Source of the DNA: a virus
Lineage: Duplodnaviria; Heunggongvirae; Uroviricota; Caudoviricetes
IMG/VR virus record: IMGVR_UViG_2703718827_000002
Span: 1 to 50,082 of that record
Length of the DNA stretch: 50,082 bases
Reading direction: 5' to 3' (one strand)
Made by a program: the position numbers and the translations under genes. The notes beneath the pieces were generated by a model that saw nothing but the letters and a program-made list of their open reading frames with translations, made no database searches and was not told where the DNA came from. Below are positions 1 to 39,587 of this stretch, piece after piece. Every line of letters starts with the position of its first letter. The first letter of the stretch is position 1.

Positions 1-99
1 GAATTGCAGCTGCATCGACGACAACCGGAAGATAAGCACCCGGCGCTGCACCACAAAGCATTTCTCCCGCATCAGCGGGTAACGACAGAGGGTAAGTCA

Positions 100-768
100 A
101 TGATTCGTCTTAACAACGAAATTAAAAATCAGCTATGCCATAACCTGCTTCTCGCATCCCCATTGTTTGAGAAAGCGAAAGCTGCGGTTAATGAGAGGGC
201 GAAAATTGTTGAAGAAATTCGACAGGCATTGCTCAAGCAGGAAAACACTAGCGATGAGCAAATAACTAAGGCTCGGGAAGATTTCAAAGATAACTCCTTC
301 ATCAAGATGCAGGTCGGCGCTAAAACTGCAACTTTAAAGGTCATTATTAATGGTGAGTATCACGAATTAGCCAGGAACGGTTTGGATCATCGCTATCGCC
401 ACCGTGGAAAACATATTGGTAAGCACGATCTTGAAAGCGACCTGTTCTTCGGAGCTTCCTTCGCGCCTGTAATTGATTCGGGTTTCGTTCCTGAAAGTTA
501 CAGCACGCTGAAGAAAGTTGGAAAATTACACGACCGACTCACTGAATCGACGGTAACCATCAACGTTCTTTACGATGAAGTTGATGCCTTCCAATTGCAG
601 GTTAAAGGTGCTCTAACCAAAGTCTCAACTGTTAAAAAACTGGCTGAGATGTGGCCTGAGGCAGTGCCATATTTGCCTGAGGTGGAACGCCGTGAAGCGA
701 CCAGCACCGCACTTGCCATTCCCGTTGAAACGCTAAACGCCCTTTGCGGCATACCAAAGAATGAATGA
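100..768 (+). CDS. Hypothetical early-region protein (222 aa)
   Basis: ORF 4..768 begins at TTG; ATG at 100 is preceded by GAGGG RBS; followed by a hairpin terminator; no family recognised. Confidence 0.55.
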   Translation: MIRLNNEIKNQLCHNLLLASPLFEKAKAAVNERAKIVEEIRQALLKQENTSDEQITKAREDFKDNSFIKMQVGAKTATLKVIINGEYHELARNGLDHRYRHRGKHIGKHDLESDLFFGASFAPVIDSGFVPESYSTLKKVGKLHDRLTESTVTINVLYDEVDAFQLQVKGALTKVSTVKKLAEMWPEAVPYLPEVERREATSTALAIPVETLNALCGIPKNE

Positions 769-790
769 CCCGCTCCGGCGGGTTTTTTAT
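769..790 (+). terminator. Rho-independent terminator (CCCGC-TCCG-GCGGG + T6)
   Basis: Perfect 5-bp GC stem, 4-nt loop, followed by TTTTTT immediately after the stop codon at 766-768. Confidence 0.7.
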
Positions 791-929
791 CGGCCATACA
801 TAGGCAGATTTTCGAGTCTGCCCATTTATGACAACCGGCGGCCATCCACCGCCCATTGAAACACTGAATAAATGCGTTGAAGTCTTGTATTAACCGTTCC
901 GTTCGCCGCGATAAGGCCAAGAGGAAATC

Positions 930-1058
930 ATGGTAAACCAGCAGCAGATCAGAGAGGCCCAACGGCTCGCGTCGTTCGCGGTGCTCCATCGCAATGCTCC
1001 GGCGTGGGAAGAAGCAAAACGCCTTTACGCCGTCGCCATCGGGAGGACTCTTCACTGA
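930..1058 (+). CDS. Small hypothetical protein (42 aa)
   Basis: ATG with GAGGAAA RBS; stop TGA overlaps the next ATG (TGATG); below the ORF-track size cutoff. Confidence 0.4.
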   Translation: MVNQQQIREAQRLASFAVLHRNAPAWEEAKRLYAVAIGRTLH

Positions 1059-1255
1059 TGGAAACTTTATTCGCACTCGTCCTGACCGTGGCAATGACCA
1101 ACGGTGATTATCAGGATGTCATTCTCGGCGTTTACGACAGCCAGCAGGAATGCAGCCTGGCAGCTACAGAGCAGAAAGTGTCAGCTGAGTGCTGGCCGGT
1201 AGAAAGCATCATCCGCAACGGCGAGTTCCCGGCGAAATCCATCGCGCAGCAGTAA
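1058..1255 (+). CDS. Small hypothetical protein with hydrophobic N-terminus (65 aa)
   Basis: ATG at 1058 inside track ORF 1004..1255 (GTG start); GGGAGG RBS; translationally coupled to the upstream small ORF. Confidence 0.45.
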   Translation: METLFALVLTVAMTNGDYQDVILGVYDSQQECSLAATEQKVSAECWPVESIIRNGEFPAKSIAQQ

Positions 1256-1325
1256 CCACCCTATTCAACCGATCGGCCTGGCATTACGCGGGCGGGATCT
1301 GCACATCCAAATTTCAGGAGAAACC

Positions 1326-2297
1326 ATGAGCGAAGTAACGGATTTAGTCGTCATTGAGAAACAGAACGCAATGGCGGTATTCACCACCAAAGAGCAGCTC
1401 GACCCTATTATTGAGGCGATCGAGAAAGAAGCTCGCAGCCTGGTACCGGATGTGTCGACCCGCAAAGGCCGCGACGCGATCGCATCCATGGCGCATAAGG
1501 TTGCCCGCTCCAAAACCTATATCGACAACGCCGGCAAGGATCTGGTTGCCGAGCTTAAAGCCCTGCCGAAGCAGATCGACGAAAGCCGCCGCATTGTGCG
1601 TGAGAGGCTGGACGCGCTGAAGGATGAAGTACGGCGCCCACTTACCGAATGGGAAGCCGAGCAGGAACGTATTAAGGCTGAAGAAGCCATGAACGCGATG
1701 CACGCCGAAGCACTGGTGATGAACGAGAGCATCGATTTGCAGCGGGCTATTCAGTTCGAAGCGGACCACGAAATGGCTCTGCTGATGAATAAGGATTTTG
1801 ACCGGGACCGCGAAGAGCAGCGCCGCCTGGCGGAACAGGCTCAACGTGAGCATGAAGAGCGCATTAAGAGTGAAGCGGCAGAGCAAGCCCGACGCGATGC
1901 CGAAGCGAAGCACAAAGCAGAAATTGAAGCCGCAGCGCGCCGTGAAGCTGAAGAGAAAGCGCGTGCAGAGCTGGCGGAACGCCAGCGCATTGAAGCGGAA
2001 CAGCGTGCGACACGCGAGAAGAAGGAAGCAGAAGCCCGGGCGGAAAGAGAAAAAGCTGCGGCAGTGGAAGCTGAGCGCCACAAGGCAAAACAGGCCGAAG
2101 ATGCTCGCCTGGCCGAAGAGAAGCGCCTCGCCGATGAACAGGCAAAGCGCGAAGCTGACGTGAAGCACCGCAAGACGGTCGGCACCAACATCGTTAACGC
2201 GCTCACCAGCCACACCAGCTTAACCCGCGAACAGGCTATCGAAGTGCTCACCGCACTTAAAGACGACCTAATCCCCTGCGCAAAAATTCATTACTGA
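1326..2297 (+). CDS. Coiled-coil phage protein with long Glu/Arg/Ala/Lys-rich region
   Basis: AGGAGA RBS; 323 aa; central charged low-complexity segment; sits upstream of the gam/bet/exo cluster. Confidence 0.6.
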   Translation: MSEVTDLVVIEKQNAMAVFTTKEQLDPIIEAIEKEARSLVPDVSTRKGRDAIASMAHKVARSKTYIDNAGKDLVAELKALPKQIDESRRIVRERLDALKDEVRRPLTEWEAEQERIKAEEAMNAMHAEALVMNESIDLQRAIQFEADHEMALLMNKDFDRDREEQRRLAEQAQREHEERIKSEAAEQARRDAEAKHKAEIEAAARREAEEKARAELAERQRIEAEQRATREKKEAEARAEREKAAAVEAERHKAKQAEDARLAEEKRLADEQAKREADVKHRKTVGTNIVNALTSHTSLTREQAIEVLTALKDDLIPCAKIHY

Positions 2298-2304
2298 GGC
2301 AACC

Positions 2305-2589
2305 ATGAACGCATACCTCACTTACGACCGCATCGAAGATCGGCGCTGGGTTGAGCAGCAGCTCACCGACGAGAAGGAGAAGTGGATCGACGACCGGGCT
2401 CAGAAAATCATCGACATGATGCCAAAAGAGCCGTCCGGCCTCTTCCACTTCACGGTCCCGATTGACTCCAGCCCATACGAAGGACTTCGCAGCGATAAAG
2501 CTGGCGAGGCTTACAACGATTTCATTTCGGCAGTTGCTTACGCCCAAGCGGAATACGACTGGGAACACCGTACCGGCTGCCCGTTTTAA
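2305..2589 (+). CDS. Gam-like protein (possible RecBCD inhibitor), short form
   Basis: N-terminus MNAYLTYDRIEDRRW resembles lambda GamS MNAYYIQDRLEAQSW; lies immediately upstream of bet/exo; C-terminus diverges. Confidence 0.45.
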   Translation: MNAYLTYDRIEDRRWVEQQLTDEKEKWIDDRAQKIIDMMPKEPSGLFHFTVPIDSSPYEGLRSDKAGEAYNDFISAVAYAQAEYDWEHRTGCPF

Positions 2590-2607
2590 TTTTTGAGGGG
2601 ATTAACG

Positions 2608-3453
2608 ATGGCAAACGAATTAACAATCACAGCGACGTCGCTTCAGGAGATAGGCGTCGACGTCTCCACCTGGAGCGCGCTGAAGAACAGCATCTACCCT
2701 GGCGCCAAAGACGAATCGGTAATGATGGCGCTTGATTACTGCCGCGCCCGCCAGTTGGATCCGTTGCTCAAACCTGTCCACCTCGTTCCGATGTACGTCA
2801 AAGACTCGAAAACAGGTAAAGGTGACTGGCGCGACGTGGTCATGCCTGGCATCGGGCTTTACCGCATTCAGGCAGACCGTTCCGGCGATTATGCCGGGGC
2901 TCGCGAGCCTGAGTTCGGGCCAGACACGACGCAGACACTTTCTGGTGTCGAGGTGACCTTCCCTCAGTGGTGCAAATACACCGTCTACAAGCGCATGCCC
3001 AGCGGCGAGATCGTCGAGTTCAGCGCCAAAGAATACTGGATTGAAAACTATGCCACCGCCGGCCGCGACACCACGGCGCCGAATGCAATGTGGAAAAAGC
3101 GCCCATACGGCCAGCTGGCGAAATGCGCAGAAGCCCAGGCGTTGCGTAAGGCATGGCCTGAGATTGGACAGCAGCCTACCGCCGAAGAAATGGAAGGCAA
3201 ATCACTGGACGTTGATATCCGTGACGTCACGCCGCGCAACACCACTGAAGCACTTCCACCAGCAGCAAGCGAAGAAACGCTGCAGGCGATAACCGATCTC
3301 TTAACGACACTGGATAAAGACTGGGAGAAAGACTTCCTCCCTGTGTGCAGAGACATCTTCAAACGGCCAATTCTTGAGGCGTCAGACCTCACTGAAGAAG
3401 AGGCACAGAAAGGGTTCAACTTCCTTCAGAAAAAAGCTAAGGCGGCAGCATGA
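2608..3453 (+). CDS. bet: RecT/Red-beta family single-strand annealing protein (Bet-like)
   Basis: C-terminal region closely matches lambda Bet (recalled); ATG at 2608 with GAGGGG RBS (track start 2593 is TTG); stop overlaps exo. Confidence 0.8.
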
Positions 3454-4130
3454 CACCCGAAATTATCCTGTCCCGGACTGGCATTGACGTAACCACGATC
3501 CAACAGGGCGACGAGGCATGGCACCGGCTGCGTCTCGGCGTCATTACTGCCTCTGAAGTGCATAACGTCATTTCCAAGCCGCGCTCCGGCACCAAATGGA
3601 CGGGCATGAAGATGTCCTACTTCCACACCCTACTCGCCGAGGTATGCACCGGCGTAGCACCAGAGGTTAATGCCAAGGCGTTGGCCTGGGGCAAGCAGTA
3701 CGAGGAAGACGCCCGCACCCTCTTCGAGTTCACCACTGACGTGAAAGTCACGGAGTCTCCGATCCTGTTCCGTGACGAGAGCATGCGCACCGCGTGCTCC
3801 CCTGACGGCCTTTGCAGTAACAATTTCGGCCTTGAGCTGAAATGCCCGTTCACCTCCCGCGACTTTATGAAATTCCGCCTCGGCGGTTTCGAAGCCATTA
3901 AGTCCGAGTACATGGCCCAGGTGCAGTACAGCATGTGGGTGACCGGAAAAGACGCCTGGTTCTTTGCCAACTACGACCCGCGCATGAAGCGCGAAGGTAT
4001 TCACCACGTCGTCGTTGAGCGGGACCCGCAGTACATGACCGATTTCAACGAAATGGTGCCGGAGTTCATTGAGAAGATGGACGAGGCGCTGGCAGAGATC
4101 GGCTTCACGTTCGGGGAACAGTGGAAATGA
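3450..4130 (+). CDS. exo: Lambda-type 5'-3' exonuclease (Red-alpha / YqaJ family)
   Basis: Sequence is near-collinear with recalled lambda Exo (MTPDIILQRTGIDV..., [24 protein letters not shown]). Confidence 0.9.
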
Positions 4131-4555
4131 AACGCACACCCTTTTACCGCCGGCCAGGGCGAACCGGGAAATTCTCCGGCCTCCGTGAGCGTGTTATCTG
4201 GATGATTCAGACGCGCGGCCGCCCGGTAACCGGCAGCGAAATCGCCGAGAAGTTTGGCGTAACGCTCATCGAGTTTAACCGGGTCGCCAACGGCATTACC
4301 CGCGGCACCGGGCAGATAGCGCAGGTCGTTGAGTCGAAAAAGTGGATCAACGAGGACGGCATTTGCGACCGGACATTCGACCTCGTCACGAAGCCTAAGG
4401 TCGTAACACCACAGGGCAAATCACGGCTATTCACCCGGCGCGCCATTGAGCAATCGCAGGAAGGCCGACGGCAGGAGTGCATTGAACGTGCCGCCCGCCG
4501 TAGTCGCCTGATTGCTCAGGGCCTCTACATCGACGAAATGGAGTCAGTGCTATGA
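4127..4555 (+). CDS. Hypothetical phage protein (142 aa)
   Basis: ATG at 4127 overlaps exo stop (ATGA); track ORF 4121..4555 starts at GTG. Confidence 0.5.
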
Positions 4556-4719
4556 AAGCGTGGTCTCTCGAAGAGCTGGCGCTGCTGTGGCGACACACAA
4601 ACGCTGAAGTCGCCGAGATTACTGTCCGCTGCATTGAAGAGGTAGGAGATAAGCGGCTGCAAACCAATATTGAGCGTAATGGCTGGGATGTAAACGATCC
4701 GGAGCGGGAGGCTGCATGA
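4552..4719 (+). CDS. Small hypothetical protein (55 aa)
   Basis: ATGA overlap with upstream stop; uninterrupted ORF; below track cutoff. Confidence 0.35.
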   Translation: MKAWSLEELALLWRHTNAEVAEITVRCIEEVGDKRLQTNIERNGWDVNDPEREAA

Positions 4720-4853
4720 CCGAAGGTATTGATCAGCTTATTTATAACGACGAGTTTCCCGGGATTGCGTACAACAAATTTACCGCCAGTTCTTTGGAAG
4801 GAAAAGTGGAAACCCGATCGGCAGGATGCACAGCAAGGGTTACTGGCGAATAG
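4716..4853 (+). CDS. Small ORF (45 aa), possibly the displaced 5' portion of the HNH gene
   Basis: ATG overlaps upstream stop; ends 28 nt inside the HNH ORF in another frame. Confidence 0.25.
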   Translation: MTEGIDQLIYNDEFPGIAYNKFTASSLEGKVETRSAGCTARVTGE

Positions 4854-5209
4854 CTTGCGGCAAGAAGTGCTATCTCGCCCATCGGCTGGCTTGGTTCTTC
4901 TGTTATGGGGTTTGGCCCAAAGAGATTGACCATATCGACAATAACAAGCTCAACAACTCCATCGGCAACCTACGTGAAGTCACCCACCAACTTAATCAAT
5001 TAAATATGCCACTGCGCAGTAATAACACGAGCGGTGTGAAAGGGGTTAATTGGGATAAGCATCGTAAGCGGTGGCGCGCCAGGGTGATTATTAACGGCAA
5101 GTATTTCACTGCCGGACACTTCAAGGAAATTGCAGATGCCGAGGTGGCAATCAGGGCACTCCGCGAGCAAGTCCATGGAGAATTTGCAAATCATGGGGGC
5201 AAGTCATGA
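4826..5209 (+). CDS. HNH homing endonuclease with AP2-like DNA-binding domain
   Basis: AHRLAW and IDHIDNNKLNNSIGNLR HNH motifs followed by SGVKGVNWDKHRKRWRARVIINGKYF AP2-like segment; upstream in-frame sequence also looks HNH-like. Confidence 0.7.
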   Translation: MHSKGYWRIACGKKCYLAHRLAWFFCYGVWPKEIDHIDNNKLNNSIGNLREVTHQLNQLNMPLRSNNTSGVKGVNWDKHRKRWRARVIINGKYFTAGHFKEIADAEVAIRALREQVHGEFANHGGKS

Positions 5210-5424
5210 CATCTGAAACAGACAACGCCGTACGCGCCGCCTGCCGCCGCTGCACCGAGGAAATCCAGCAGGCCATGCGCAAGAAGCCAAAGCCAAACTG
5301 GAACGAAACGGTGCCTCCAATCATCAACAAGCATCACAAGAAAATTGAATCTCTGGGAGTTAGCCTCCTGGAGTTTGTCGTCAAAACTGGCCGCCTTAAC
5401 GGGCGGTTTGGAGCCGAACAATGA
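5206..5424 (+). CDS. Hypothetical phage protein (72 aa)
   Basis: ATG overlaps HNH stop; GGGGG RBS. Confidence 0.45.
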   Translation: MTSETDNAVRAACRRCTEEIQQAMRKKPKPNWNETVPPIINKHHKKIESLGVSLLEFVVKTGRLNGRFGAEQ

Positions 5425-5515
5425 CAACAAAATTCCCCGGGTCGCTAAGTCGGCCCTTTTTATTGCTGGCGTTCACCTTCAACCGAATTAACCGACAGTT
5501 CCGGGAGCATTGACC

Positions 5516-5734
5516 ATGGACATCATCGACACAGCAGCAGAGATTGAAGAGCTTCAGCGTAACGCTGCCCTTTCCGCTCACCGCCTCAACCGTAACGCCG
5601 TATCAGCTGAGCGTTGTGAAGAATGCGACGAACCAATTTCCGAGCCGCGGCGCTCTGCCGTTCCCGGTTGCCAGACGTGCGCGGATTGCCAATCCGTCAT
5701 CGAGCTGAAGAATAAGCAGAGGGGAATCCAGTGA
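5516..5734 (+). CDS. TraR/DksA-family C4 zinc-finger protein
   Basis: CEECDEPI...CQTCADCQ four-cysteine motif near C-terminus; ATG at 5516 with GGGAG RBS (track start 5510 is TTG). Confidence 0.7.
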   Translation: MDIIDTAAEIEELQRNAALSAHRLNRNAVSAERCEECDEPISEPRRSAVPGCQTCADCQSVIELKNKQRGIQ

Positions 5735-6402
5735 AAGAGCGCGGAATGATTTTTAACGGCGAGATGGTGCGCGCCATCCTCGACGGCCGGAAGACGCAGA
5801 CGCGGCGCATCATGAAAATTCAGCCGTCTGATGGCTTCCACCCAACGCATAACGGTTACGATCTGGATTTAAACGCACACTGGTACACGCCTGGCGTGGT
5901 CGATAAAAACGGATACCTGCAGCCTGCAAAGAAAGATGTGTTTGGCGTTGCAGATGAGAATGAAGGCTACACCTGCCCGTTCGGTGCCGTCGGCGATCGC
6001 ATCTGGGTGCGCGAAACGTGGGCTGAAGCTGGTGCTGGCGCGCCGGACCTGAAACTTTATCGCGCGGATTATCCTGAGCACCTTCCAACTCATTACGAGA
6101 ATGTGCCGCCGGCTGATGAAATACGCTGGACGCCTTCGATTCACATGCCGCGCTGGGCCAGTCGTCTAACTCTGGAGATTACCGGCGTGCGTGTTGAGCG
6201 ACTTAGAGATCTGAGTGAGGACGATGCAAAGTCAGAAGGCATTACGCCGCCTTCCGGCGGGGTTCTTCCCGGATGGGAATATCGCATTAACTTCCGTGAC
6301 CTTTGGATGAGCATCTACGGTGCCGACAACTGGGAAGCTAACCCATGGGTTTGGGTTATCGAATTTAAGGTGGTGCCCAATGTTCAGGATAATCCAGCCT
6401 AA
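5731..6402 (+). CDS. ASCH-domain (PUA-like) protein
   Basis: N-terminal MIFNGEMVRAILDGRKTQTRR and C-terminal PWVWVIEFK resemble the ASCH signature (as in E. coli YqfB); GTG at 5731 overlaps upstream stop with AGAGGGG RBS; ATG at 5746 is an alternative start. Confidence 0.5.
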   Translation: MKERGMIFNGEMVRAILDGRKTQTRRIMKIQPSDGFHPTHNGYDLDLNAHWYTPGVVDKNGYLQPAKKDVFGVADENEGYTCPFGAVGDRIWVRETWAEAGAGAPDLKLYRADYPEHLPTHYENVPPADEIRWTPSIHMPRWASRLTLEITGVRVERLRDLSEDDAKSEGITPPSGGVLPGWEYRINFRDLWMSIYGADNWEANPWVWVIEFKVVPNVQDNPA

Positions 6403-6619
6403 TACCTGGTACGCCGATGATTTCGGCGCGCCATGCAAAATCCTCCGCGCTACCCACGAAGTAATCCACTACATCCGCAACGGCCGCACCTGCATTGCCA
6501 GCATGGGCCGCTTTAATCAGGATTTCGAGCCGCTGACCAAAGCAGAGGCCGAGCGGATCGCTGAAGAAATCGAAACAGCAGAACACCTGAAGAAGCTGCG
6601 TGCCCATCGCGCGGCGTAA
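6380..6619 (+). CDS. Hypothetical phage protein (79 aa)
   Basis: ATG at 6380 with AAGGTGG RBS inside track ORF 6320..6619. Confidence 0.45.
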   Translation: MFRIIQPNTWYADDFGAPCKILRATHEVIHYIRNGRTCIASMGRFNQDFEPLTKAEAERIAEEIETAEHLKKLRAHRAA

Positions 6620-6627
6620 GGAGAACT

Positions 6628-6858
6628 ATGAGCACCATTCAGGACATCCTAAACCAGCTATCAACCCTGGTCACCGAGGCGCACAAAGTGGCGTGCTCAC
6701 TCGATATTGGTGATGAGCGAACCGAGGCTTTCGAGCTATACGAAGCGCTTCGTCGACTTCAGCGGCAGGGCGCCGCCGGAGAGATTCTCTCAGCAACCAA
6801 CCCTCTTCTCGCCTCGCCATATTACGACGAGGACTGGGACGAAGATGGAGACGACTGA
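6628..6858 (+). CDS. Hypothetical acidic protein (76 aa)
   Basis: AAGGAG RBS; Asp/Glu-rich C-terminus. Confidence 0.45.
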   Translation: MSTIQDILNQLSTLVTEAHKVACSLDIGDERTEAFELYEALRRLQRQGAAGEILSATNPLLASPYYDEDWDEDGDD

Positions 6859-6923
6859 CGCAACTGATAGCCAGTTATGAGCTGGCTATTGGGTGCGAAT
6901 GCACTGCCACGTTATCCCCCTTT

Positions 6924-6950
6924 CAGCCCTCCATTGCGAGGGCTTCTTTT
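6924..6950 (+). terminator. Rho-independent terminator
   Basis: AGCCCTC-cattgc-GAGGGCT hairpin followed by TCTTTTT. Confidence 0.6.
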
Positions 6951-6965
6951 TGCCTGGAGACAGCT

Positions 6966-7181
6966 ATGAATGACAGTATCCTGCTTACCAGTGACGTACT
7001 GGCTCGCTATAAGATTTCCCGGAGCACTCTGTATTTCTGGAGCACCCCGGAGCGAATGCCTGCTGGCTTCACCTGCCCTTTCCCCAAACCAACAATCCCC
7101 GGCAACCCAAAACGCTGGAGAGAGTCGGAGATCGTTTCGTGGGAAATGCAGGTCAACGCCTCTAAAGCTGATACCCAATAA
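6966..7181 (+). CDS. AlpA-family excisionase / phage regulatory protein
   Basis: 71 aa; LARYKISRSTLYFW helix-turn-helix typical of AlpA/Xis-like proteins; convergent with and overlapping the 3' end of the integrase. Confidence 0.6.
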   Translation: MNDSILLTSDVLARYKISRSTLYFWSTPERMPAGFTCPFPKPTIPGNPKRWRESEIVSWEMQVNASKADTQ

Positions 7182-8343
7182 TGCTCTGCAGGTGATTCTG
7201 CCAAATACCCAACCACTCGCGCTGGTCATCCATATAGTCGTGCAGGTTGTATCTGGCCATCACCCCACCCATCTGATGACCAAGCAGCTTTTCAATAACA
7301 TGCGGTGGCGCGCCAAGTTCTGACAACCTGGTTGCAACGGTGCGCCTCAGGTCATGCAGAGACCACTGTTTCATGTCTGTCTTTCTGATCACCTGCATGG
7401 AATAGGTCGAGACTAGGGCCTGAGTAGGTGGAATGTCTTCTTTATCTCGGAACTGAGCCGGTGTTAAAACGTGCTTAGTGACCGAACCTCTTTTATGCTC
7501 CTGAAGCAGCCTGATCGCCACTTCAGGCAATGCCCTCCTGATCGTCTTCCCTGTTTTGTAATCCTCAGCCGGTACCGTCCAGGTCTTTTCATTAAAGTTG
7601 TACCAGTCCCAGCGCGATTTCCTTATTTCTGCAGCCCTGCACCCAGTCAGGAGCATGAACCGTATAACAAGTTGCTGTGATGGAGGGAGCGCGAAAAGTG
7701 TATCCCAAACCACTTTGATCTCTTCGTCGGAGAGTCGCCTCTCCTTCATCTTCGCTGCAATACCAACGTCTGATCTGCGCAAGGATTCAAGCGGGTTGTT
7801 TTTAATTACCCCTCGGTTATGGCAGAACCGGAACGCGCGCTTCATTAATGACAGCATCTCACCAGTAATAACCGAACGCCCCATCTCGTCGAACACATCA
7901 AGCCAGTTAGCCTTGAACGTCTGATCAACCATCGCCCTGCCAATGCGCGGGCTAATGTGCTTCTGAAAGCTCCTGGTATTGGCATCGATTTTGATCAGAC
8001 CCTCGGGAATGCAGTAATGCTTTACCCAGTACTCATACGCCTGGTCAACCGTTAGCGCCTCTATCCTTTCTGCTTTCTCAACCAGAACCTTCTGGCGTGG
8101 ATCGTAACCCTCACTCAGCCAGGCGCGAAACTGCTGCCTGCGGTCTCTTGCCTGCGCTAATGAATAGGCTGGGTATTCACCTATACTGAGTTGCACCGGC
8201 TTACCCTGCCAGCGATAACGGTAGAAGAAAGTTACGCCACCAGTTATGCTTAACCTGACATTAAGCCCGTTTGAATCTGAGAGAACTTCCACACTCTCTC
8301 TGCGCTTACCAAGCGCCTTACGAAGTTTTGTATCTGTGAGCAT
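7162..8343 (-). CDS. int: Tyrosine integrase (P4-type)
   Basis: C-terminal catalytic region with HDLRRT...LLGH...Y; N-terminal MLTDTKLRKA typical of P4-like integrases; ATG at 8343 with AGGGG RBS (track start 8352 is GTG). Confidence 0.85.
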   Translation of the reverse strand: MLTDTKLRKALGKRRESVEVLSDSNGLNVRLSITGGVTFFYRYRWQGKPVQLSIGEYPAYSLAQARDRRQQFRAWLSEGYDPRQKVLVEKAERIEALTVDQAYEYWVKHYCIPEGLIKIDANTRSFQKHISPRIGRAMVDQTFKANWLDVFDEMGRSVITGEMLSLMKRAFRFCHNRGVIKNNPLESLRRSDVGIAAKMKERRLSDEEIKVVWDTLFALPPSQQLVIRFMLLTGCRAAEIRKSRWDWYNFNEKTWTVPAEDYKTGKTIRRALPEVAIRLLQEHKRGSVTKHVLTPAQFRDKEDIPPTQALVSTYSMQVIRKTDMKQWSLHDLRRTVATRLSELGAPPHVIEKLLGHQMGGVMARYNLHDYMDDQREWLGIWQNHLQSIIGYQL

Positions 8344-8645
8344 CGTGTACACCCCTGAGCCATGTACTCAGCAGTGTACACAAAACACGTAAATTGCAAC
8401 CATACAAAATAAAACACGTTAAAGAGTTATAAACAATGAAGTGAGTAACGGCGCGGTTTTGGCGGGAATAATTTTAAACGCAATAAAACACGATAAAGCA
8501 GAACTCGTTGAAGTATTATGCCTCAGGAAGATAAATCCTAACCAGACTGCCAGTCCTTCGGGGCTGGCGCTGTATCTCCTCTGTTCTCCTCAGGAAAATC
8601 ATAGTAGCATCGCGCCTGTGATTTTCCTTTTAAGTCGGTTTTACC

Positions 8646-9044
8646 ATGTCTACAACACATAACGTCCCTCAGGGCGATCTTGTTTTACGTACTTTAGCCA
8701 TGCCCGCCGATACCAATGCCAATGGTGACATCTTTGGTGGTTGGTTAATGTCACAAATGGATATTGGCGGCGCTATTCTGGCAAAAGAAATTGCCCACGG
8801 TCGCGTAGTGACTGTGCGGGTTGAAGGAATGACTTTCTTACGGCCGGTTGCGGTCGGCGATGTGGTGTGCTGCTATGCACGCTGTGTCCAGAAAGGGACG
8901 ACATCGGTCAGCATTAATATTGAAGTGTGGGTGAAAAAAGTAGCGTCTGAACCAATTGGGCAACGCTATAAAGCGACAGAAGCATTATTTAAGTATGTCG
9001 CGGTTGATCCTGAAGGAAAACCTCGCGCCTTACCTGTTGAGTAA
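8646..9044 (+). CDS. yciA: Acyl-CoA thioesterase YciA
   Basis: 132-aa product matches recalled E. coli YciA along its length. Confidence 0.85.
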   Translation: MSTTHNVPQGDLVLRTLAMPADTNANGDIFGGWLMSQMDIGGAILAKEIAHGRVVTVRVEGMTFLRPVAVGDVVCCYARCVQKGTTSVSINIEVWVKKVASEPIGQRYKATEALFKYVAVDPEGKPRALPVE

Positions 9045-9047
9045 TAG

Positions 9048-9080
9048 TCAAAAGCCTCCGGTCGGAGGCTTTTGACTTTC
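9048..9080. terminator. Bidirectional terminator between convergent yciA and tonB
   Basis: Long inverted repeat TCAAAAGCCTCCG / CGGAGGCTTTTGA with A/T runs on both sides. Confidence 0.7.
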
Positions 9081-9083
9081 TGC

Positions 9084-9803
9084 TTACTGAATTTCGGTGG
9101 TGCCGTTAATTTTAAACAGGATATTCACCACAATCCCACTGCCTGGCTTACCCGGCTCATAACGCCATCTGCGCATCGCATTTTTCACCTCACGCTCAAA
9201 CATGTTCGCAGGCTTGGCTGAGAGGATTTGTACGTTATCCACGCGACCATCCGGCGTAACGTCAAATTTAACTTTAACCTGCCCTTCAATGCGCAATGCC
9301 TGTGCTCGTGCCGGATACTGCGGCTGATTACGGCTTAATGCGCGTGGTCCTGAAGCCACACTGGTAACCGGCTTGCTGGTTGCAGCCGTTGCTGTACTTG
9401 ATGTCAGGCGTGCCGGTGCCGTATTTTCAAACGGTGATGCCGGACGCGACTCTACGGGTTTGACATCGCGTTTTGGCTGCTCCTGTACCTTTTTCACCGG
9501 CTTCGGTTTTGGCTTAGGTTTCGGCTTCGGCTTTTCAATGACCACCGGTGCTTCTTTTGGCGGTTCGGGGATCGGCTCAGGTTCCGGTTCTGGCTCTACC
9601 ACCGGCTCCGGTGGCGGCTGAACGGCTTGTGGCGGTTCGAGATCAGCAGGCGTAACCATCGTGACAGAAATCGGCTGCGCAGGCGCAGGTAGTTCAATAA
9701 CCTGATGTACCGAGGTATAGAGCAGACCCGCCACAACAGCACCATGAATGCAGACCGAAAGTAACGTCGGCCAGGGGAAGCGGCGAGGTAAATCAAGGGT
9801 CAT
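9084..9803 (-). CDS. tonB: TonB energy-transducing protein
   Basis: MTLDLPRRFPWPTLLSV..., (EP)n and (KP)n repeats, C-terminal domain; 239 aa from ATG at 9803 (track ORF extends upstream to 9854). Confidence 0.9.
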   Translation of the reverse strand: MTLDLPRRFPWPTLLSVCIHGAVVAGLLYTSVHQVIELPAPAQPISVTMVTPADLEPPQAVQPPPEPVVEPEPEPEPIPEPPKEAPVVIEKPKPKPKPKPKPVKKVQEQPKRDVKPVESRPASPFENTAPARLTSSTATAATSKPVTSVASGPRALSRNQPQYPARAQALRIEGQVKVKFDVTPDGRVDNVQILSAKPANMFEREVKNAMRRWRYEPGKPGSGIVVNILFKINGTTEIQ

Positions 9804-10026
9804 TGAAGTCATAATCATTTCAGTAGAAAAACCAGGTCTCGATTTTAAATGCAAATAGCAATCATATTCAATAAGGCAAGACGATCAGGATCAGTGAAAA
9901 TGTCATTTTTGGCGTAATTACCCTTACTTTATGCATGGCCTTAACAAAGACATCATCTTTCCGTTGCAGATCTTCGCCCTTTCAAATAACGTACTTTACA
10001 ACTTTCCCGAACAAGGAGTTGTGCCC

Positions 10027-10323
10027 GTGTTGTATGTTATTTACGCTCAAGACAAAGCTGATAGCCTCGAAAAACGCCTTTCCGTTCGTCCGGCACATTT
10101 AGCACGTTTACAGTTACTGCATGATGAAGGTCGTTTGTTGACAGCTGGTCCAATGCCAGCGGTAGACAGTAACGATCCAGGGGCTGCGGGATTTACTGGC
10201 TCAACCGTTATTGCTGAATTTGAATCGCTGGAAGCAGCTCAGGCCTGGGCCGATGCTGACCCGTACGTAGCGGCAGGAGTCTATGAACACGTTTCAGTGA
10301 AACCATTTAAGAAAGTGTTCTAA
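10027..10323 (+). CDS. yciI: YciI-like protein
   Basis: 98-aa product from GTG start matching the recalled yciI neighbour of tonB; track ORF 9931..10323 extends upstream. Confidence 0.7.
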
Positions 10324-10387
10324 TTTATTAGAAATTTGCACTTAAATCAAAAAGTTACGGACAATTCAACCACCAATCAATAAATTA

Positions 10388-10430
10388 AAGGGCACATTAA
10401 AGTACACAATATTTGTGCCCTTCTCTGTTT
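10388..10430. terminator. Hairpin between yciI and the invertase gene (possible bidirectional terminator)
   Basis: AAGGGCACA ... TGTGCCCTT inverted repeat with T-rich flanks; loop is long, so weaker. Confidence 0.35.
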
Positions 10431-10441
10431 CTTTCCCGTTA

Positions 10442-10990
10442 TCAGCTAGCTGGAAACTTTTTATACAGAGTTGAGAGCCCTACTCCATACGTTTTTGATA
10501 CGCTTTGTCGTGATTCACCGGTTGCCATCCGCTCCCCCATTTCCCGCCATTGCTCATCCGTGAACTTAGGCCTGCGACCACCAACTCGCCCTTTTGCCCT
10601 GGCTACGGCCAGCCCTGCTAAGGTACGTTCGCTATTAAGATCAGATTCATATTGTGCTGCGGAAAGGATGTTACGAAAGTTATAGCGGCCGCTGGCTGTT
10701 TTGAGATCCACGCCATCGGTAATACTGCGGAAGTTGATACCCTTTTCCTGTAACTGCTGGAACATCAACAGCGCATGCAGAACGTTGCGGCCTATCCTGT
10801 CCAGCTTCCAGACCACCAGTTCATCCCCCGGCTGCATAGTGGCGATCAGCCGTTTTAGAACCGGCCGATTCGATTTCCTCCCGCTGGCATGCTCTTCAAA
10901 AATTTTCTCACAACCCGCTGACTTGAGCGCCGTTAGTTGCAATTCAGTGTCCTGGTGGTTTGTTGATACTCGGGCATAACCGTAAATCAT
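10442..10990 (-). CDS. Serine recombinase, Hin/Gin/Pin-type DNA invertase
   Basis: MIYGYARVSTNHQD...VVWKLDRIGR...C-terminal HTH GLSTLYKK; 182 aa; typical resolvase/invertase catalytic domain. Confidence 0.85.
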   Translation of the reverse strand: MIYGYARVSTNHQDTELQLTALKSAGCEKIFEEHASGRKSNRPVLKRLIATMQPGDELVVWKLDRIGRNVLHALLMFQQLQEKGINFRSITDGVDLKTASGRYNFRNILSAAQYESDLNSERTLAGLAVARAKGRVGGRRPKFTDEQWREMGERMATGESRQSVSKTYGVGLSTLYKKFPAS

Positions 10991-11194
10991 GAGTGCTTCT
11001 CCTGTTGTAAAAACAGGAGAAGAGGCGAAATATCACCTGATTCAGAAAAATATTTGAAAGGTTGGTTTGGGAGAAGCGGCAAAACGGGATGTGGGAACAG
11101 GGGAAAATCAGATACCGGATATGGCTTTTTTTGCCAGTGGTGATGGATGGATGAAATTACCCAACGGTAAAATCCTGCAATATGGTCGAGGTGC

Positions 11195-11418
11195 GGTTAC
11201 GCCGCCGAGGTATCGATACAATTGTGTTATGTGGGATCTCGACCAATATCGGTGTTGAATCCACCGCCCGCAATGCCTGGGAACTTGGCTTTAATCTGGT
11301 GATTGCCGAAGACGCCTGTAGTGCCGCCAGCGCCGAGCAACACAATAACAGCATTAATCATATCTACCCGCGCATCGCCCGTGTGCGTAGCGTGGAAGAG
11401 ATCCTTCACGCGTTATGA
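11195..11418 (+). pseudogene. yecD: 3' fragment of isochorismatase-family gene yecD
   Basis: Only the C-terminal ~75 codons ([18 protein letters not shown]...RVRSVEEIL) are present; the upstream in-frame sequence is unrelated; stop overlaps the yecE start. Confidence 0.6.
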
Positions 11419-11520
11419 TTTACATCGGTCTGCCGCAATGGTCGCATCCTAAATGGGTGCGGTTGGGGATCACCAGCCTTGAAGAGTATGCCCGTCACTT
11501 TAACTGCGTGACGCGGGCAT
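11415..11520 (+). pseudogene. yecE: 5' fragment of yecE, truncated at a prophage junction
   Basis: [32 protein letters not shown] matches the recalled YecE N-terminus for about 35 codons, then diverges into AT-rich phage-end sequence. Confidence 0.6.
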
Positions 11521-11638
11521 TTTAAAAATCACTAAAGAACGCCCAAGAGCATGTGTTTTCTTTAGTTTATTCAATGCATTAAAAAATAGTTTCGCATGAA
11601 ATTCGGTAAACTTCATGTGTGCAATAATGTCCCATTCA

Positions 11639-11690
11639 TGCCCCAAAATGCCCCAAAGCAGACATTTTTGCCCCAAGTATGCCCCACAAG
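11639..11690. repeat. Four direct TGCCCCA(A/C)A repeats with helical phasing
   Basis: Copies start at 11639, 11649, 11669 and 11680 (spacings 10, 20, 11 bp), about 120 bp inside the yecE junction. Confidence 0.6.
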
Positions 11691-19605: not shown

Positions 19606-22600
19606 TTATGTGAGGCGTTGACTGGTGTTGAAGTTGTTGGTCAGTGCGTTGGAGAGTTTTCCTTTGCCGCTGGCGACGTCACTGACAGCCATGGCATAGC
19701 CCTGCTGCGCCCCGCGCTTGACTGCGGCCTCGAGCATGGCCAACTGCTGCTCAGTCGGATCCCCGTTAACCTGAATGACCGGGCTGTAACTGAACGCCCC
19801 GCCACCACCGCCCATATCGCGGTTACTGATGACGCGACCGTTATCGCCGGGGATCATGTACTGCTTGCCGGTGCTGGCCTGGTAAATCTCTGGCTTACCT
19901 TTCTCGCCGACCTGATACAGGCCACCGGCTGATACCGGTCCGCCATTGTACCGCGCTCCCGCTATTGAAAGGGCCTGCGCCATGCCAACTGTTGAAGCTA
20001 TTCCCGCCTGTGCCGGCACTGCATTCGCGCCAGCAGTTGCAAGAGATGTCATTGCGGCTGCAGGGGCCATGGAAGCGGCGATTAGCTGCCCTTGCGCAAT
20101 AGCCATTCCAGAAGCGGCGGTCATGCCAGCCTGACCCATAATTACAGACTTCAACCACTCAACCCCCATCTGAACAAAGGAGTTGATGACGCTGTTAAGT
20201 ACCGTCGAGCCTAGCGACCGCATAGCTTCGCTGACAGACATGCTGCCAGTGATTATGCCAGTGAGGGCGTTGGAGGCGTTTCCAGCAAATGAATCAAACG
20301 CCGCGGCAGCTACTTCATATCCTGCATTTTGTTGTCGCCATATCTCCCACTGCGCCGCTATGCGCTGTTGCTCGTACTGAGTGTTAGCGGCATTCATCAG
20401 CTCAAGTCCGCGCTGAGTAATCTGCCCCTTCTGCGATTCAAACTGCTGGATTAGAGCCAACTCCTGCGCGTGCTGGTTAGCCAGCTGTTGGACAGGGTCA
20501 ATCTGCCCCCGAGCTTCCTGCATGGGGCTTACAGTTTGCTGAGCGCGTATCTTAGCCAGATTAACCTGGTGCTGAGCCTCCAGTTGCTCACTGGTCTGAT
20601 TGTACTGCTGCTGAGTGATTTTTTTGGCGGCCAGTGCAGTTTGCAGATCTTTAACATCCTGCTGGTAAGACGCATTCTCTCTGGCTTCAGGGAGCAGTTT
20701 TTCTGCCGCAGCCTGGGCTTTGAGGGCATTAGCCGTATCCCATATTTCTCCACGGTATTTACCGGCAAGAGCAATTTGCTCTTGGGTGGCTCCCTTACCT
20801 AGTGATTGCTGAGCCTGTAATACTGCCTGCTCCCGGCTTAACTCCTGCGTTGAGCCAGCAGCGAGCTCTGATTGCTGGCGCAGATTTTCAAGTTTTTGGT
20901 TTACCGATTCCTGCTGGTTAGCAAGTTTCTTAGCCTCAGATTCCGCTTCCTTGGTGGCCTTTTTGTTATTTTGCTGCGCTTGTTGAGCATCGAATTCAGC
21001 TGCTGCTCTGTCACGAGCAAGGTTAACATCCGCCTCTGATCCACCGAGTTTCCTAATGTCCTGCTCAGCCCTTAATTGCGCTCGCTTCCTGTCATTAAGC
21101 TCGCTCTGAAGTGTTACCTGATCCTGTAGCTTATCCAGATACTCCTGAACATCTTTCGGGCGTTCAATCATGAGGCTGCTGGAGTTGAATTTGTCTTTTG
21201 CCTTGGCCGCAAAATTAATCATATCTCCCAACTTGCTCATCATGCCGGCAGCAATTCCCGCTTCCTGCCCATCCCTGCGCAGCAAATCGATACCTTGCTT
21301 CATCGTTCCGTTTAGCGTAGCGCGGCCAATGTTAATGGCGTTTTGGGTCTGACTCAGTCTGTTCTGGGCCTTCTCCAGCTCAAGGGTAGCTATAGCTAGG
21401 TTATCCTGTGCGCCGCTAAGCGCCTCGGCAGCCTGCCGCCCTCTCGTTGTATTCGTACCCCAGTTTGCAATTTCTCGCTGCTGTCGCTGGACAGCCGATG
21501 TCGCGTCATTGAATTCCTTTTGTGCGTCTGATACCGCGTCACTTAATTCAGGCAGGCTTTGGCTTAGCTTTCCTATCGTTGCCGCCAGCTCTGTATGCGA
21601 CATCGTCTGGAATTTTGAGCTCAGATCGTTAACGCTATCTGCAAGGGCATTAGCGTCATTCCTGGCCTCTTTTGCGCGCTGTGAAAAGTAAAGGATTGCA
21701 CTAGCAGCAAGCATTGCCGCTCCGGCAGGCCCACCAATTAACCCGAGAGCCCTGCTAGCCAGGCTGGCACCAGATGAGAGAGCCATTTGAGCAGCCCTGT
21801 TTGCCGCCAGTGCTCGATTATAATTATCAACCGCACCGGCAGCCGCAACCCTGGCAACGGACAAGCGCTGTTCAGCTGCCGCAGCGTTGGTTTCGCTGAT
21901 AGCAGTAAGGCGCATCATTTCTGCGAGCCTTATCTCATCTAAGGCCCGTTGTTTTGCGACCGCTGCAGCCCTGAGGTCTGCCGCTGCTTTATTCGCGGAA
22001 GCCTGAGCTGCTAATGATTCTTCTGCTGAAAGCATGCGTGATGCGGCAGCTGCTTTGATTTTAGCCGCAGTAGCCATAGTTAAGGCGCCGACATACCGAC
22101 TCCCAAGAATAGCCGCGGCACCAGTCAGCAACGCGCTCAGTCCGCCAATATTCTCACTGATGGTGACCACTGCATCACTAAAAATTGCCGCGCCTGTTTT
22201 AACCGTAGAATTTTCACCGAAGAACTTAGTGATGTTATTGCCAGCAACCTGAAGAGCCTGGCTGATAGTCGTAGTGGTGTTGGCAAATTCAGCACCGATT
22301 AAACTCCCCTGGGAAAGCAGACCGTTAACCACAACATCTGTCGTTAGCTTGCCCTGTGCCGCCATGTTGCGCATCTGGCCGATGCTGACCCCCATAGAGT
22401 CAGCAAGGGCTACGATAAGGCGGTTACCCTGCTCGTTTACAGAGTTGAATTCCTCGCCGCGTAAAGCTCCAGAAGCAAGGCCCTGAGATAGCTGAATAAT
22501 CGCGTTCTCGGCCTCTTGCGCCGTGGCACCTGATACAACGAACCCTTGGTTTATAATTGTGGTTAACTTCGCCAGATCATCTGCGCTGGTCCCGTACTGC

Positions 22601-22980
22601 CTGGTTGCCCTTTCTAGTCTTGCGTAGAGGGATGCCGTTGCATCTAAACTACTGCGAGTTTGCTGAGTAATGTTGAAAACCCGCTCGGTTACATCGGCAA
22701 GTTGTTCTGATGGGCGAATAGAGTTTGATAATTTATTGTTAACAGTAGCCCACGCATCAGCGTATTCAGCCACCTGCTGAACTGACAATGCCGCGGTGAG
22801 CGCAACCGCTACACGTGACAGACTCGACATTGAACGCTCAGTAGTATCAATTGAGCGCGTTGTTTTATCAAAGCCGCGCTCCATCAGATCAAGGCGCTGA
22901 TTAACGCGCTGCTGAGCAGTAAGTAGCCCGCGCACATCCATTTCAATGTCGTAATAAATACCGCCAGCGTTCTCAGCCAT
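19606..22980 (-). CDS. Tail tape measure protein
   Basis: 1124 aa, Ala/Gln-rich coiled-coil-like composition, Gly-rich C-terminal region, position between chaperone and tail tip genes. Confidence 0.85.
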   Translation of the reverse strand: MAENAGGIYYDIEMDVRGLLTAQQRVNQRLDLMERGFDKTTRSIDTTERSMSSLSRVAVALTAALSVQQVAEYADAWATVNNKLSNSIRPSEQLADVTERVFNITQQTRSSLDATASLYARLERATRQYGTSADDLAKLTTIINQGFVVSGATAQEAENAIIQLSQGLASGALRGEEFNSVNEQGNRLIVALADSMGVSIGQMRNMAAQGKLTTDVVVNGLLSQGSLIGAEFANTTTTISQALQVAGNNITKFFGENSTVKTGAAIFSDAVVTISENIGGLSALLTGAAAILGSRYVGALTMATAAKIKAAAASRMLSAEESLAAQASANKAAADLRAAAVAKQRALDEIRLAEMMRLTAISETNAAAAEQRLSVARVAAAGAVDNYNRALAANRAAQMALSSGASLASRALGLIGGPAGAAMLAASAILYFSQRAKEARNDANALADSVNDLSSKFQTMSHTELAATIGKLSQSLPELSDAVSDAQKEFNDATSAVQRQQREIANWGTNTTRGRQAAEALSGAQDNLAIATLELEKAQNRLSQTQNAINIGRATLNGTMKQGIDLLRRDGQEAGIAAGMMSKLGDMINFAAKAKDKFNSSSLMIERPKDVQEYLDKLQDQVTLQSELNDRKRAQLRAEQDIRKLGGSEADVNLARDRAAAEFDAQQAQQNNKKATKEAESEAKKLANQQESVNQKLENLRQQSELAAGSTQELSREQAVLQAQQSLGKGATQEQIALAGKYRGEIWDTANALKAQAAAEKLLPEARENASYQQDVKDLQTALAAKKITQQQYNQTSEQLEAQHQVNLAKIRAQQTVSPMQEARGQIDPVQQLANQHAQELALIQQFESQKGQITQRGLELMNAANTQYEQQRIAAQWEIWRQQNAGYEVAAAAFDSFAGNASNALTGIITGSMSVSEAMRSLGSTVLNSVINSFVQMGVEWLKSVIMGQAGMTAASGMAIAQGQLIAASMAPAAAMTSLATAGANAVPAQAGIASTVGMAQALSIAGARYNGGPVSAGGLYQVGEKGKPEIYQASTGKQYMIPGDNGRVISNRDMGGGGGAFSYSPVIQVNGDPTEQQLAMLEAAVKRGAQQGYAMAVSDVASGKGKLSNALTNNFNTSQRLT

Positions 22981-22995
22981 TTGCTATCTCCGGGC

Positions 22996-23020
22996 AATAA
23001 AAAACCCCGCCGGAGCGAGG
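22996..23020 (-). terminator. Terminator-like hairpin plus T-run immediately upstream of the tape measure start
   Basis: On - strand: CCTCGC-TCCG-GCGGGG (one G-U pair) followed by TTTTTT; same family as the 15128 and 32005 elements. Confidence 0.5.
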
Positions 23021-23039
23021 TCTATAACATGGAACTTGG

Positions 23040-23420
23040 TTAGTTTAGGAGGCCTGATTTAACTTCTGTATTTGAATTATTAAATAAGTAATTATCTACA
23101 ATATCGCCCTTAAACACGATTATAAGCTGCTTCATGTTGGTAGTAGCGCCGTTATCAAATAGTCCATAGATGGGAATAAATGCTTTCCCGCTGACCTGTG
23201 TGTTTGTGAAAACATAGTGCCACTGTTCTTTCCCATCACTGGAGATTGATACCCCAGTTGGATCTCCATATGCAGCCTTAACCTCTTGCTTCGTCGTCTT
23301 TCCTTTGATTATTTTACTCTGAATGCCAATCTGCGTTTCTTGCTCAATCGACTTATTGCCGCCAGAAGCACAACCGGCAAGTACAACCGCTATTGCTGCA
23401 ACCAATAGAACCTTTTTCAT
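23040..23420 (-). CDS. Lipoprotein with BamE (SmpA/OmlA)-like fold signature
   Basis: MKKVLLVAAIAVVLAGC lipobox; KQEVKAAYGDP...EQWHYVF resembles the BamE motif; ATG 23420 with GGGGA RBS (track start 23480). Confidence 0.6.
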   Translation of the reverse strand: MKKVLLVAAIAVVLAGCASGGNKSIEQETQIGIQSKIIKGKTTKQEVKAAYGDPTGVSISSDGKEQWHYVFTNTQVSGKAFIPIYGLFDNGATTNMKQLIIVFKGDIVDNYLFNNSNTEVKSGLLN

Positions 23421-23560
23421 ATCCCTATCCCCATCAGTAAATGATGCGGCAATCGTAGCAGAGGGGAAGCGATACGACAAAGCAACCTGTTCGCTTATCA
23501 GGATGTTCAGCGGTACGATAGCAAGGTAGCCTTGAAGCAGGCATCAACCAAGGAATCATC

Positions 23561-32601: not shown

Positions 32602-33606
32602 TCACTCCGACTCGGATTTCCAAGCTTTCCTCTCTTTCGCCAGTTTCTCAGCCAGCCCCTCATTGAAGATGCTGCCGTCGTCGTTGAGCAGCACTGGGAT
32701 CTGGCTGCAGTAGCAGTTGTACCGGTTGCCGTTCTCGGCGTAGAAGTCCCGAATCTCTTCGGTGGTGTAGACCTTGCCGTGGCGGCTGGCATGCCAGGTT
32801 CGCGTCGTTGGTTTTAGCGCTGACAACCACAGTAGGCCGGTATTCAGCCCCAGCCGGTCAGCAGCCCAGTCGGTTTCGTTCCATTGTGCCTGCCGCAGTG
32901 CGCCGACCTGCTCAGTCTGAGCGATGGTCTTTGCCTTCGACATCGACACATCGAGGCGCTTGCTGATTACGCTGGCCGTCTCGCGAGGGTTCACCCCGCG
33001 CGCGACCGCATCGGTGATGATGTTGGTCAGGTCGCCGCGGGCTGTATCGCTGATGACCTTCCAGTCACTGAACGTTGTCAGCCTTGCCGCTGCCACCTGA
33101 TTAAGATGACCGGGACTGCTTAAAAGCTGCTGCAGCGTCGTCTGACTGGCATACACCTGCGACTGTTGCGAGAGGTTATTGAATGCCTCAAGCGTGCCGC
33201 GCTGCGCTTCTGCGACGACGTAATCCATCGCCCAGAGATTTTGCTCGCCACCATCCAGTAGGTAATCGTCGAGAATGGCCTGCACCGCTTCCAGCAGGTC
33301 CGCCAGTTCCTGCGCCGACATGTCGTAGATGAACTTGCCGGCGTTTACCTGGTAGAGGCGCATATCCGCGCCGTGGTCATGACAAAGGAAGTGCCAGTTA
33401 TGGCTGTTAACCTCGCGCTCACGCCCGGTAAGGCGCTGGTCGAACAGAGATTTCAGCGCTCGCTTGATGCCGATATATCGCTTCTCGATATCCCGGAACA
33501 TCGCGGTTACCTGCTTTGCCGATAGGGTTGGGTCAACCTTGCTGCGCGGAACTACCGGTGTCCCGACTTTCGTCTTTTGCTCCGGCGTCATCGGAAAGAG
33601 GATCAT
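32602..33606 (-). CDS. Phage head morphogenesis protein (Mu gpF / SPP1 gp7 family)
   Basis: C-terminal LLWLSALKPTTRTWHASRHGKVY signature of the MuF-like domain; position after portal. Confidence 0.7.
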   Translation of the reverse strand: MILFPMTPEQKTKVGTPVVPRSKVDPTLSAKQVTAMFRDIEKRYIGIKRALKSLFDQRLTGREREVNSHNWHFLCHDHGADMRLYQVNAGKFIYDMSAQELADLLEAVQAILDDYLLDGGEQNLWAMDYVVAEAQRGTLEAFNNLSQQSQVYASQTTLQQLLSSPGHLNQVAAARLTTFSDWKVISDTARGDLTNIITDAVARGVNPRETASVISKRLDVSMSKAKTIAQTEQVGALRQAQWNETDWAADRLGLNTGLLWLSALKPTTRTWHASRHGKVYTTEEIRDFYAENGNRYNCYCSQIPVLLNDDGSIFNEGLAEKLAKERKAWKSESE

Positions 33607-39511: not shown

Positions 39512-39587
39512 TGGTGCTGATTGACGGAGTTGAACCGCCGACATCCTGCTTACAAGGCAGGCGCTCTACCTACTGAGCTAAATCAGC
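39512..39587 (-). tRNA. tRNA-Thr (anticodon TGT), phage-encoded
   Basis: Hand-folded cloverleaf: 7-bp acceptor stem GCTGATT/AATCAGC, D-arm GCTC/GAGC, anticodon arm CCTGC-CTTGTAA-GCAGG, T-arm GGCGG-TTCAACT-CCGTC, 3' ACCA; differs from recalled host tRNA-Thr. Confidence 0.8.

Follow-up and report, generated by a model that had tools for sequence, protein, structure and literature searches.

The HNH-AP2 locus and its two reading frames

The window, by which we mean the whole stretch of DNA analysed (50,082 nucleotides of the Caudoviricetes record IMGVR_UViG_2703718827_000002), carries at positions 4716 to 5209 a disrupted gene for an HNH endonuclease with an AP2 domain, lying between two small genes. 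The features of the locus are as follows.

4552 to 4719, plus strand: upstream neighbour, a 55-aa ORF (phrog_11492) conserved beside an HNH or a Dam cassette; its TGA overlaps the ATG at 4716
4704 to 4723, plus strand: conserved gene-junction sequence GCGGGAGGCTGCATGACCGA, with a Shine-Dalgarno (SD) sequence and an ATGA overlap; it precedes Dam and HNH cassettes in relatives
4706 to 4711, plus strand: SD sequence GGGAGG for the native ATG at 4716 (anti-SD pairing −10.3 kcal/mol, in the top 0.8% of the ATGs of the window)
4716 to 5209, plus strand: whole disrupted HNH-AP2 endonuclease gene, 494 nt here versus 495 nt (164 codons) when intact
4716 to 4853, plus strand: 45-aa stub ORF, from ATG 4716 to TAG 4851-4853
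4782 to 4787, plus strand: lesion site, ACCGCC here versus ACCGGCC in all intact alleles, the remaining G being at 4785
4826 to 5209, plus strand: 127-aa remainder ORF from Met38, from ATG 4826 to TGA 5207-5209, in a frame one base behind that of the stub
4871 to 4999, plus strand: HNH_3 (PF13392) nuclease motif, residues 16-58 of the 127-aa ORF (54.7 bits, cut-off 24.8)
5030 to 5155, plus strand: AP2-type DNA-binding domain, residues 69-110 of the 127-aa ORF (PF00847, 29.0 bits, just below the cut-off of 33.3)
5206 to 5424, plus strand: downstream neighbour, a 72-aa ORF (phrog_303) whose ATG overlaps the HNH stop codon (ATGA)

The 45-aa and 127-aa ORFs overlap in different frames, and both are present as described in the original prediction, with the HNH ORF starting at ATG 4826 and the shorter ORF at 4716. 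The stub consists of 23 native codons (MTEGIDQLIYNDEFPGIAYNKFT) followed by 22 out-of-frame codons; neither Pfam nor PHROG gave a match for it. The frame of the 127-aa ORF is open on the 5' side of ATG 4826 as far as TAA 4745-4747, and reads RRVSRDCVQQIYRQFFGRKSGNPIGR-MHSKGYW; just before Met 4826 it reads ...QFFGRKSGNPIGR. This upstream sequence, back to the stop at 4745, had been thought to resemble the N-terminus of an HNH protein, and FFGRKSGNPIGR is indeed identical to residues 26-37 of intact 164-aa homologues. Exact copies of both products are present in NCBI, the 45-aa peptide as WP_162698630.1 ('hypothetical protein') and HCJ9344060.1, and the 127-aa protein as WP_061353697.1, KXP57900.1 and HCJ9344061.1. 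Records of the 45-aa product come from 6 contigs, those of the 127-aa product from 3-4.

Protein family and predicted fold

Both the catalytic HNH motif and the AP2 domain are retained in the 127-aa ORF, which matches the HNH endonuclease family PHROG 99 with E = 7.6e-54; its HNH_3 profile score lies above the curated threshold. The C-terminal AP2 domain was also found, and precomputed Pfam annotation lists PF00847 for close homologues. Six residues (H56, D72, H73, N81, N85 and N94, in the numbering of the intact protein) are invariant in the family, in alignments of both 33 and 77 sequences, and all six are present in the window ORF; among them are the equivalents of the catalytic beta-beta-alpha-metal residues (D72-H73, N85/N94 and H56). 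H56 lies in the first part of the HNH_3 motif, and the other five follow the motif, within about 30 nt of its end.

An AlphaFold2 model was built on an intact homologue, P0002, which is 98% identical (pLDDT 91.6, pTM 0.79). The C-terminal part of this model matches the plant AP2/ERF structures 7et5, 7et4, 7wq5 and 1gcc (probability 0.89-1.00). For the N-terminal half the match is I-HmuI, an HNH homing endonuclease (1u3e; Foldseek E = 2.6e-4, 93 columns, 30% identity, rmsd 2.7). I-HmuI is also the sole solved structure with sequence similarity (phmmer E = 4.8e-6, query residues 22-103), and the sequence match opens at residue 22, with the TG-x-F motif that is destroyed by the deletion described below. 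The intact protein combines an I-HmuI-like nuclease domain with a C-terminal AP2 domain, and we infer that it acts as a homing endonuclease.

Loss of one G in codon 24

Comparison with intact alleles confirmed the predicted split by a frameshift, and showed its nature. One G of the codon for Gly24 (GGC) is lost, giving a gap at column 86 of the alignment with three intact E. coli alleles. The lesion was located by alignment, as had been proposed, although the site at 4782-4787 is slightly upstream of the interval suggested for it (4790-4830). Aligned with the 495-bp allele common to loci L001, L020 and L025, the window gene shows 0 mismatches and 1 gap over 495 columns. A difference confined to a single gap is not a chance pattern, and the inactivation must be very recent because no substitution separates the gene from the intact allele.

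The segment is found in five complete E. coli genomes with 99.3-99.5% identity, and in four of these the match spans 612 nt versus 611 nt of the window. In the three E. coli loci retrieved, RefSeq annotates a single 495-bp ORF, a 164-aa 'HNH endonuclease', running between the equivalents of ATG 4716 and position 5209. WP_196035518.1 is one example of an intact 164-aa allele. We conclude that 4716-5209 is very probably a recently inactivated free-standing HNH-AP2 endonuclease gene of the homing-endonuclease type, either null or strongly hypomorphic.

Inherited mutation versus sequencing error

The original prediction had left the choice between a pseudogene and a sequencing indel. If the record were in error at this point, the true genome would have GG at 4785 and an intact gene, and the split would exist in the record only. 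An indel error would produce just such a difference, one base lost from a run of two Gs and the rest of the gene matching. However, the identical deletion is present in two further assemblies from different sources, L004 (Logan ERR3970282) and L005 (GCA_024682845.1). L004 differs from the window by 2 mismatches over 6384 nt, and L005 by 6 mismatches over 3556 nt, after which it carries a different downstream gene set; the two also differ from each other. The presence of the same deletion in different assemblies, one of them on a recombined background, indicates an inherited allele rather than a one-off artefact. Moreover, both products hold several independent NCBI accessions, and 20 other assemblies have GG at the site, which is therefore not systematically error-prone. 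A real, inherited mutation is thus favoured by the sequence comparisons, and a sequencing or assembly error is very unlikely. The three deletion-bearing assemblies could derive from closely related isolates, in which case they would attest inheritance rather than three independent events.

Intact relatives

To describe the usual state of the gene, we used 20 loci sampled regardless of HNH state: 3 complete E. coli genomes, 10 loci located through an exact match to the 72-aa protein encoded downstream, and 7 full-length copies from a 30-mer scan. An intact ORF was present in 20/20. The scan covered viral, genome and metagenome collections, and its 7 full-length hits came from viral and metagenome contigs; no match was found among the genome contigs and only two loci in the metagenome scan, so that allele frequencies are rough.

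When 5.8 billion proteins were searched, 917 homologues were recovered, and the best 120 of the 917 are nearly all 155-175 aa long. The alignments of 33 and of 77 sequences both show Y19 and G24 conserved to at least 90%; for F26 this holds in the smaller alignment only. The deleted base falls in the G24 codon. The family has an uninterrupted ORF of about 155-175 aa with N-terminal Y-x4-G-x-F strands, and the window gene is split within this motif, at codon 24. The window copy is a disrupted derivative of the HNH-AP2 family, not an intact member.

A natural start at Met38 was ruled out, the homologues being full length and Met38 being conserved only among the closest relatives, in the 33-sequence alignment. 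The original prediction would have been overturned by intact homologues that begin at the equivalent of Met 4826; none of the proteins that begin there is intact, and all come from other disrupted alleles, with one of three nonsense mutations (E3*, Q25* or K30*) described below.

Expected translation products

ATG 4826 has an anti-SD pairing of only −5.1 kcal/mol, with zero spacing to the ATG, and no promoter-like site was found on the plus strand inside the gene. Given the strong native SD at 4706-4711, the weak pairing at Met38 and the lack of an internal promoter, the expected main product is the 45-aa peptide. The missing G (GGC reduced to G-C at 4785) shifts the frame from codon 24 onwards, and ribosomes starting at the strong native site at 4716 would make a 45-aa peptide of 23 native and 22 nonsense residues, ending at the TAG at 4851. 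The remainder is open from Met38 (4826) but lacks a proper ribosome-binding site. Termination at 4853 occurs 25 nt downstream of ATG 4826, and some coupled re-initiation is conceivable. This would yield at most a trace of the 127-aa protein, without the first three beta-strands of the nuclease domain (strands 8-10, 17-20 and 26-28 precede Met38 in the P0002 model).

Activity has most probably been abolished or strongly reduced (a null or strong hypomorph), which we deduce from the lesion. The suspicion that the nuclease may be inactive or shortened is supported by the deletion in codon 24, the absence of a usable SD at Met38 and the loss of three strands. Against a null allele, the 127-aa ORF retains every catalytic and AP2 residue. 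The HNH-AP2 gene is probably at a stage of decay that is usual for selfish nuclease genes that can be dispensed with.

For annotation, WP_162698630.1 ('hypothetical protein') and WP_061353697.1 ('HNH endonuclease') are listed in public records as separate genes but are two pieces of a single frameshifted pseudogene, and this prophage should be left out of counts of active HNH nucleases. The locus also provides a further dated case of decay in a homing-endonuclease-like gene that had settled in a temperate phage.

Other knock-outs of the same gene

Three other independent lesions were found in Enterobacter-type prophages and metagenome contigs: E3* (GAA>TAA), Q25* (CAG>TAG) and K30* (AAA>TAA). 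They occur at loci L006-L015 (for example 2890-3384 in each of L006, L007 and L009), equivalent to 4716-5209 of the window. All three are on one haplotype, whose intact form is represented by L028/L029. Each of these alleles leaves a 127-aa ORF from Met38, corresponding to P0129 (Enterobacter hormaechei and metagenomes), on at least 13 contigs. Shortened products of 87, 91, 97, 119 and 205 aa are present in the same protein clusters. The 97-aa remnant (P0009), in Salmonella P22-like prophages (L035-L037, 1201-1494), starts at the equivalent of Met38 and has a shifted C-terminus. It sits directly upstream of an integrase gene, and is a decayed copy in a different prophage type.

The gene has thus been knocked out repeatedly. 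With the deletion in the window, there are at least four independent N-terminal knock-outs on backgrounds about 99% identical, each keeping the Met38 ORF, and we considered whether these have been selected rather than being neutral. If so, the full-length nuclease might impose a cost on the lysogen, or the 127-aa HNH-AP2 remnant, made at a low level, might be kept as a DNA-binding or immunity-type factor. However, the samples drawn independently of state were all intact (20/20), and the clustering stems largely from the way the loci were found, by looking up 127-aa proteins. The truncated-protein look-up and the all-intact unbiased samples together point to ordinary decay of a dispensable selfish gene, not to demonstrable selection, and we regard selection for the knock-outs as highly improbable.

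Recoding or a short isoform as improbable alternatives

A very improbable explanation is that the split is functional, with either a −1 ribosomal slip restoring the full-length protein, or the Met38 ORF serving as a deliberate short isoform (a less toxic nuclease or an AP2 regulator). The shift required is indeed in the −1 direction, and the overlap holds GGA-AAA-G (4800-4806), where tRNA-Lys might slip back by one base. The tetranucleotide A_AAA is a weak known slippage motif. However, GGA-AAA-G is also present in intact alleles, and a slip at this site would still replace the conserved G24 and F26. No X_XXY_YYZ heptamer was found in the 0 frame over 4746-4853, leaving only the weak A_AAA in the overlap. 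The two-frame layout is not conserved, since the 20/20 unselected relatives and the distant homologues have single ORFs. A programmed frameshift was rejected on the unconserved arrangement together with the missing slippery heptamer.

For the short isoform, four independent lesions (the G deletion, E3*, Q25* and K30*) all fall before Met38, a 127-aa ORF of the same kind surviving each of them, and phage AP2-domain proteins can act as transcriptional silencers, which is a possible role for such a product (bioRxiv 10.64898/2026.02.23.707548). Against it, Met38 is unconserved outside the closest relatives and lacks an SD, the apparent clustering of lesions ahead of Met38 reflects ascertainment, the loci having been retrieved through 127-aa proteins, and the lesions behind the other shortened products (87, 91, 97, 119 and 205 aa) are in other parts of the gene. 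Recent inactivation by a single-base deletion is the preferred reading.

Cassette slot and prophage context

The window has the appearance of a complete lambdoid prophage, with the following landmarks.

2593 to 3453: RecT
3450 to 4130: YqaJ exonuclease
7162 to 8352, minus strand: integrase
33533 to 35080, minus strand: portal gene
39512 to 39587, minus strand: tRNA-Thr gene (anticodon TGT), inside the prophage-like genome
45761 to 47197, minus strand: DnaB-type helicase

The HNH gene forms an optional cassette of the early-left (recombination) operon and lies between the exo-side genes and the integrase. A terminase-associated (packaging) HNH gene of the kind found in cos phages was ruled out by position, the portal gene being about 28 kb away. 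The early-left region accumulates HNH cassettes, and a second, different HNH_3 gene was seen in the same operon in two relatives (L006 4766-5299, 177 aa; L007 1098-1574, 158 aa).

With conserved flanks, the slot holds HNH only in the window, E3 and FDAARGOS_1250; Dam only in HK639; and Dam followed by HNH in MB20, L006-L011 and L019. The ENT1 and BHUENT phages likewise have no HNH gene there. The gene thus shows presence/absence polymorphism at a fixed site, a signature of mobility. Nucleotide searches of the phage collection (close, 4500-5450; distant, 4650-5260) matched the flanks only, and no phage genome in it showed a nucleotide-level match to the HNH allele.

Similarity to the Dam-carrying relatives breaks or resumes at the junction at 4704-4723. 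The junction, about 20 nt long (GCGGGAGG(A/C)TGCATGACCGA), also occurs at L002 1555-1575 and 2103-2123, ahead of the Dam and HNH cassettes. It provides a short homology for cassette gain and loss, and recombination between the two copies would turn the Dam plus HNH arrangement into the HNH-only arrangement of the window.

The tape-measure region (19838-23481) is 98.2% identical to that of Klebsiella phage vB_Kpn_RAH1, and the early-left region resembles phi80, HK639 and Enterobacter phages. The prophage is a mosaic across genera.

Comparison with known systems

Proteins with HNH and AP2 domains are a described family of phage homing endonucleases, the 'IPA-HNH' homing endonuclease genes (HEGs) of Barth et al. 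(2023, PMC10448857), who cite Magnani et al. (2004) for the HNH-AP2 family. Like these HEGs, the intact form of the window gene has an N-terminal HNH_3 and a C-terminal AP2 domain, is about 160 aa long and free-standing, and is found in some phages but missing from others that are otherwise collinear. An HNH-AP2 homing endonuclease gene split by a frameshift has already been reported, ICP1 gp115-gp116 (PMC10448857). In that case the break is between HNH and AP2, whereas in the window it falls within the N-terminal nuclease part, at codon 24. The hosts also differ, ICP1 being a lytic vibriophage and the window a temperate lambdoid prophage of Enterobacteriaceae, in which the HEG is a predicted one, known from sequence.

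I-HmuI, the HNH homing endonuclease of Bacillus phage SPO1 (PDB 1U3E), is the best fold match for the nuclease half; the overall TM-score is only about 0.43, since this half alone matches. Unlike the free-standing window gene, I-HmuI is intron-encoded. Its C-terminal DNA-binding region is a helix-turn-helix, not an AP2 domain.

Another parallel in kind of decay is damL of phi80 (JX871397 / NC_021190, homologous to window 54-11648), a DNA adenine methylase gene annotated as a frameshift pseudogene. Both damL and the window gene are accessory genes, located in homologous early-left regions of related lambdoid phages, and the Dam cassette in relatives directly adjoins the HNH cassette slot. Unlike damL, which encodes a methylase and belongs to a different phage, the window gene encodes a nuclease. 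By analogy with phi80 damL, frameshift decay of accessory genes appears to be commonplace in the early-left region. The split HNH-AP2 gene is an ordinary recent knock-out of an already known kind of gene, in keeping with the current understanding of these systems.
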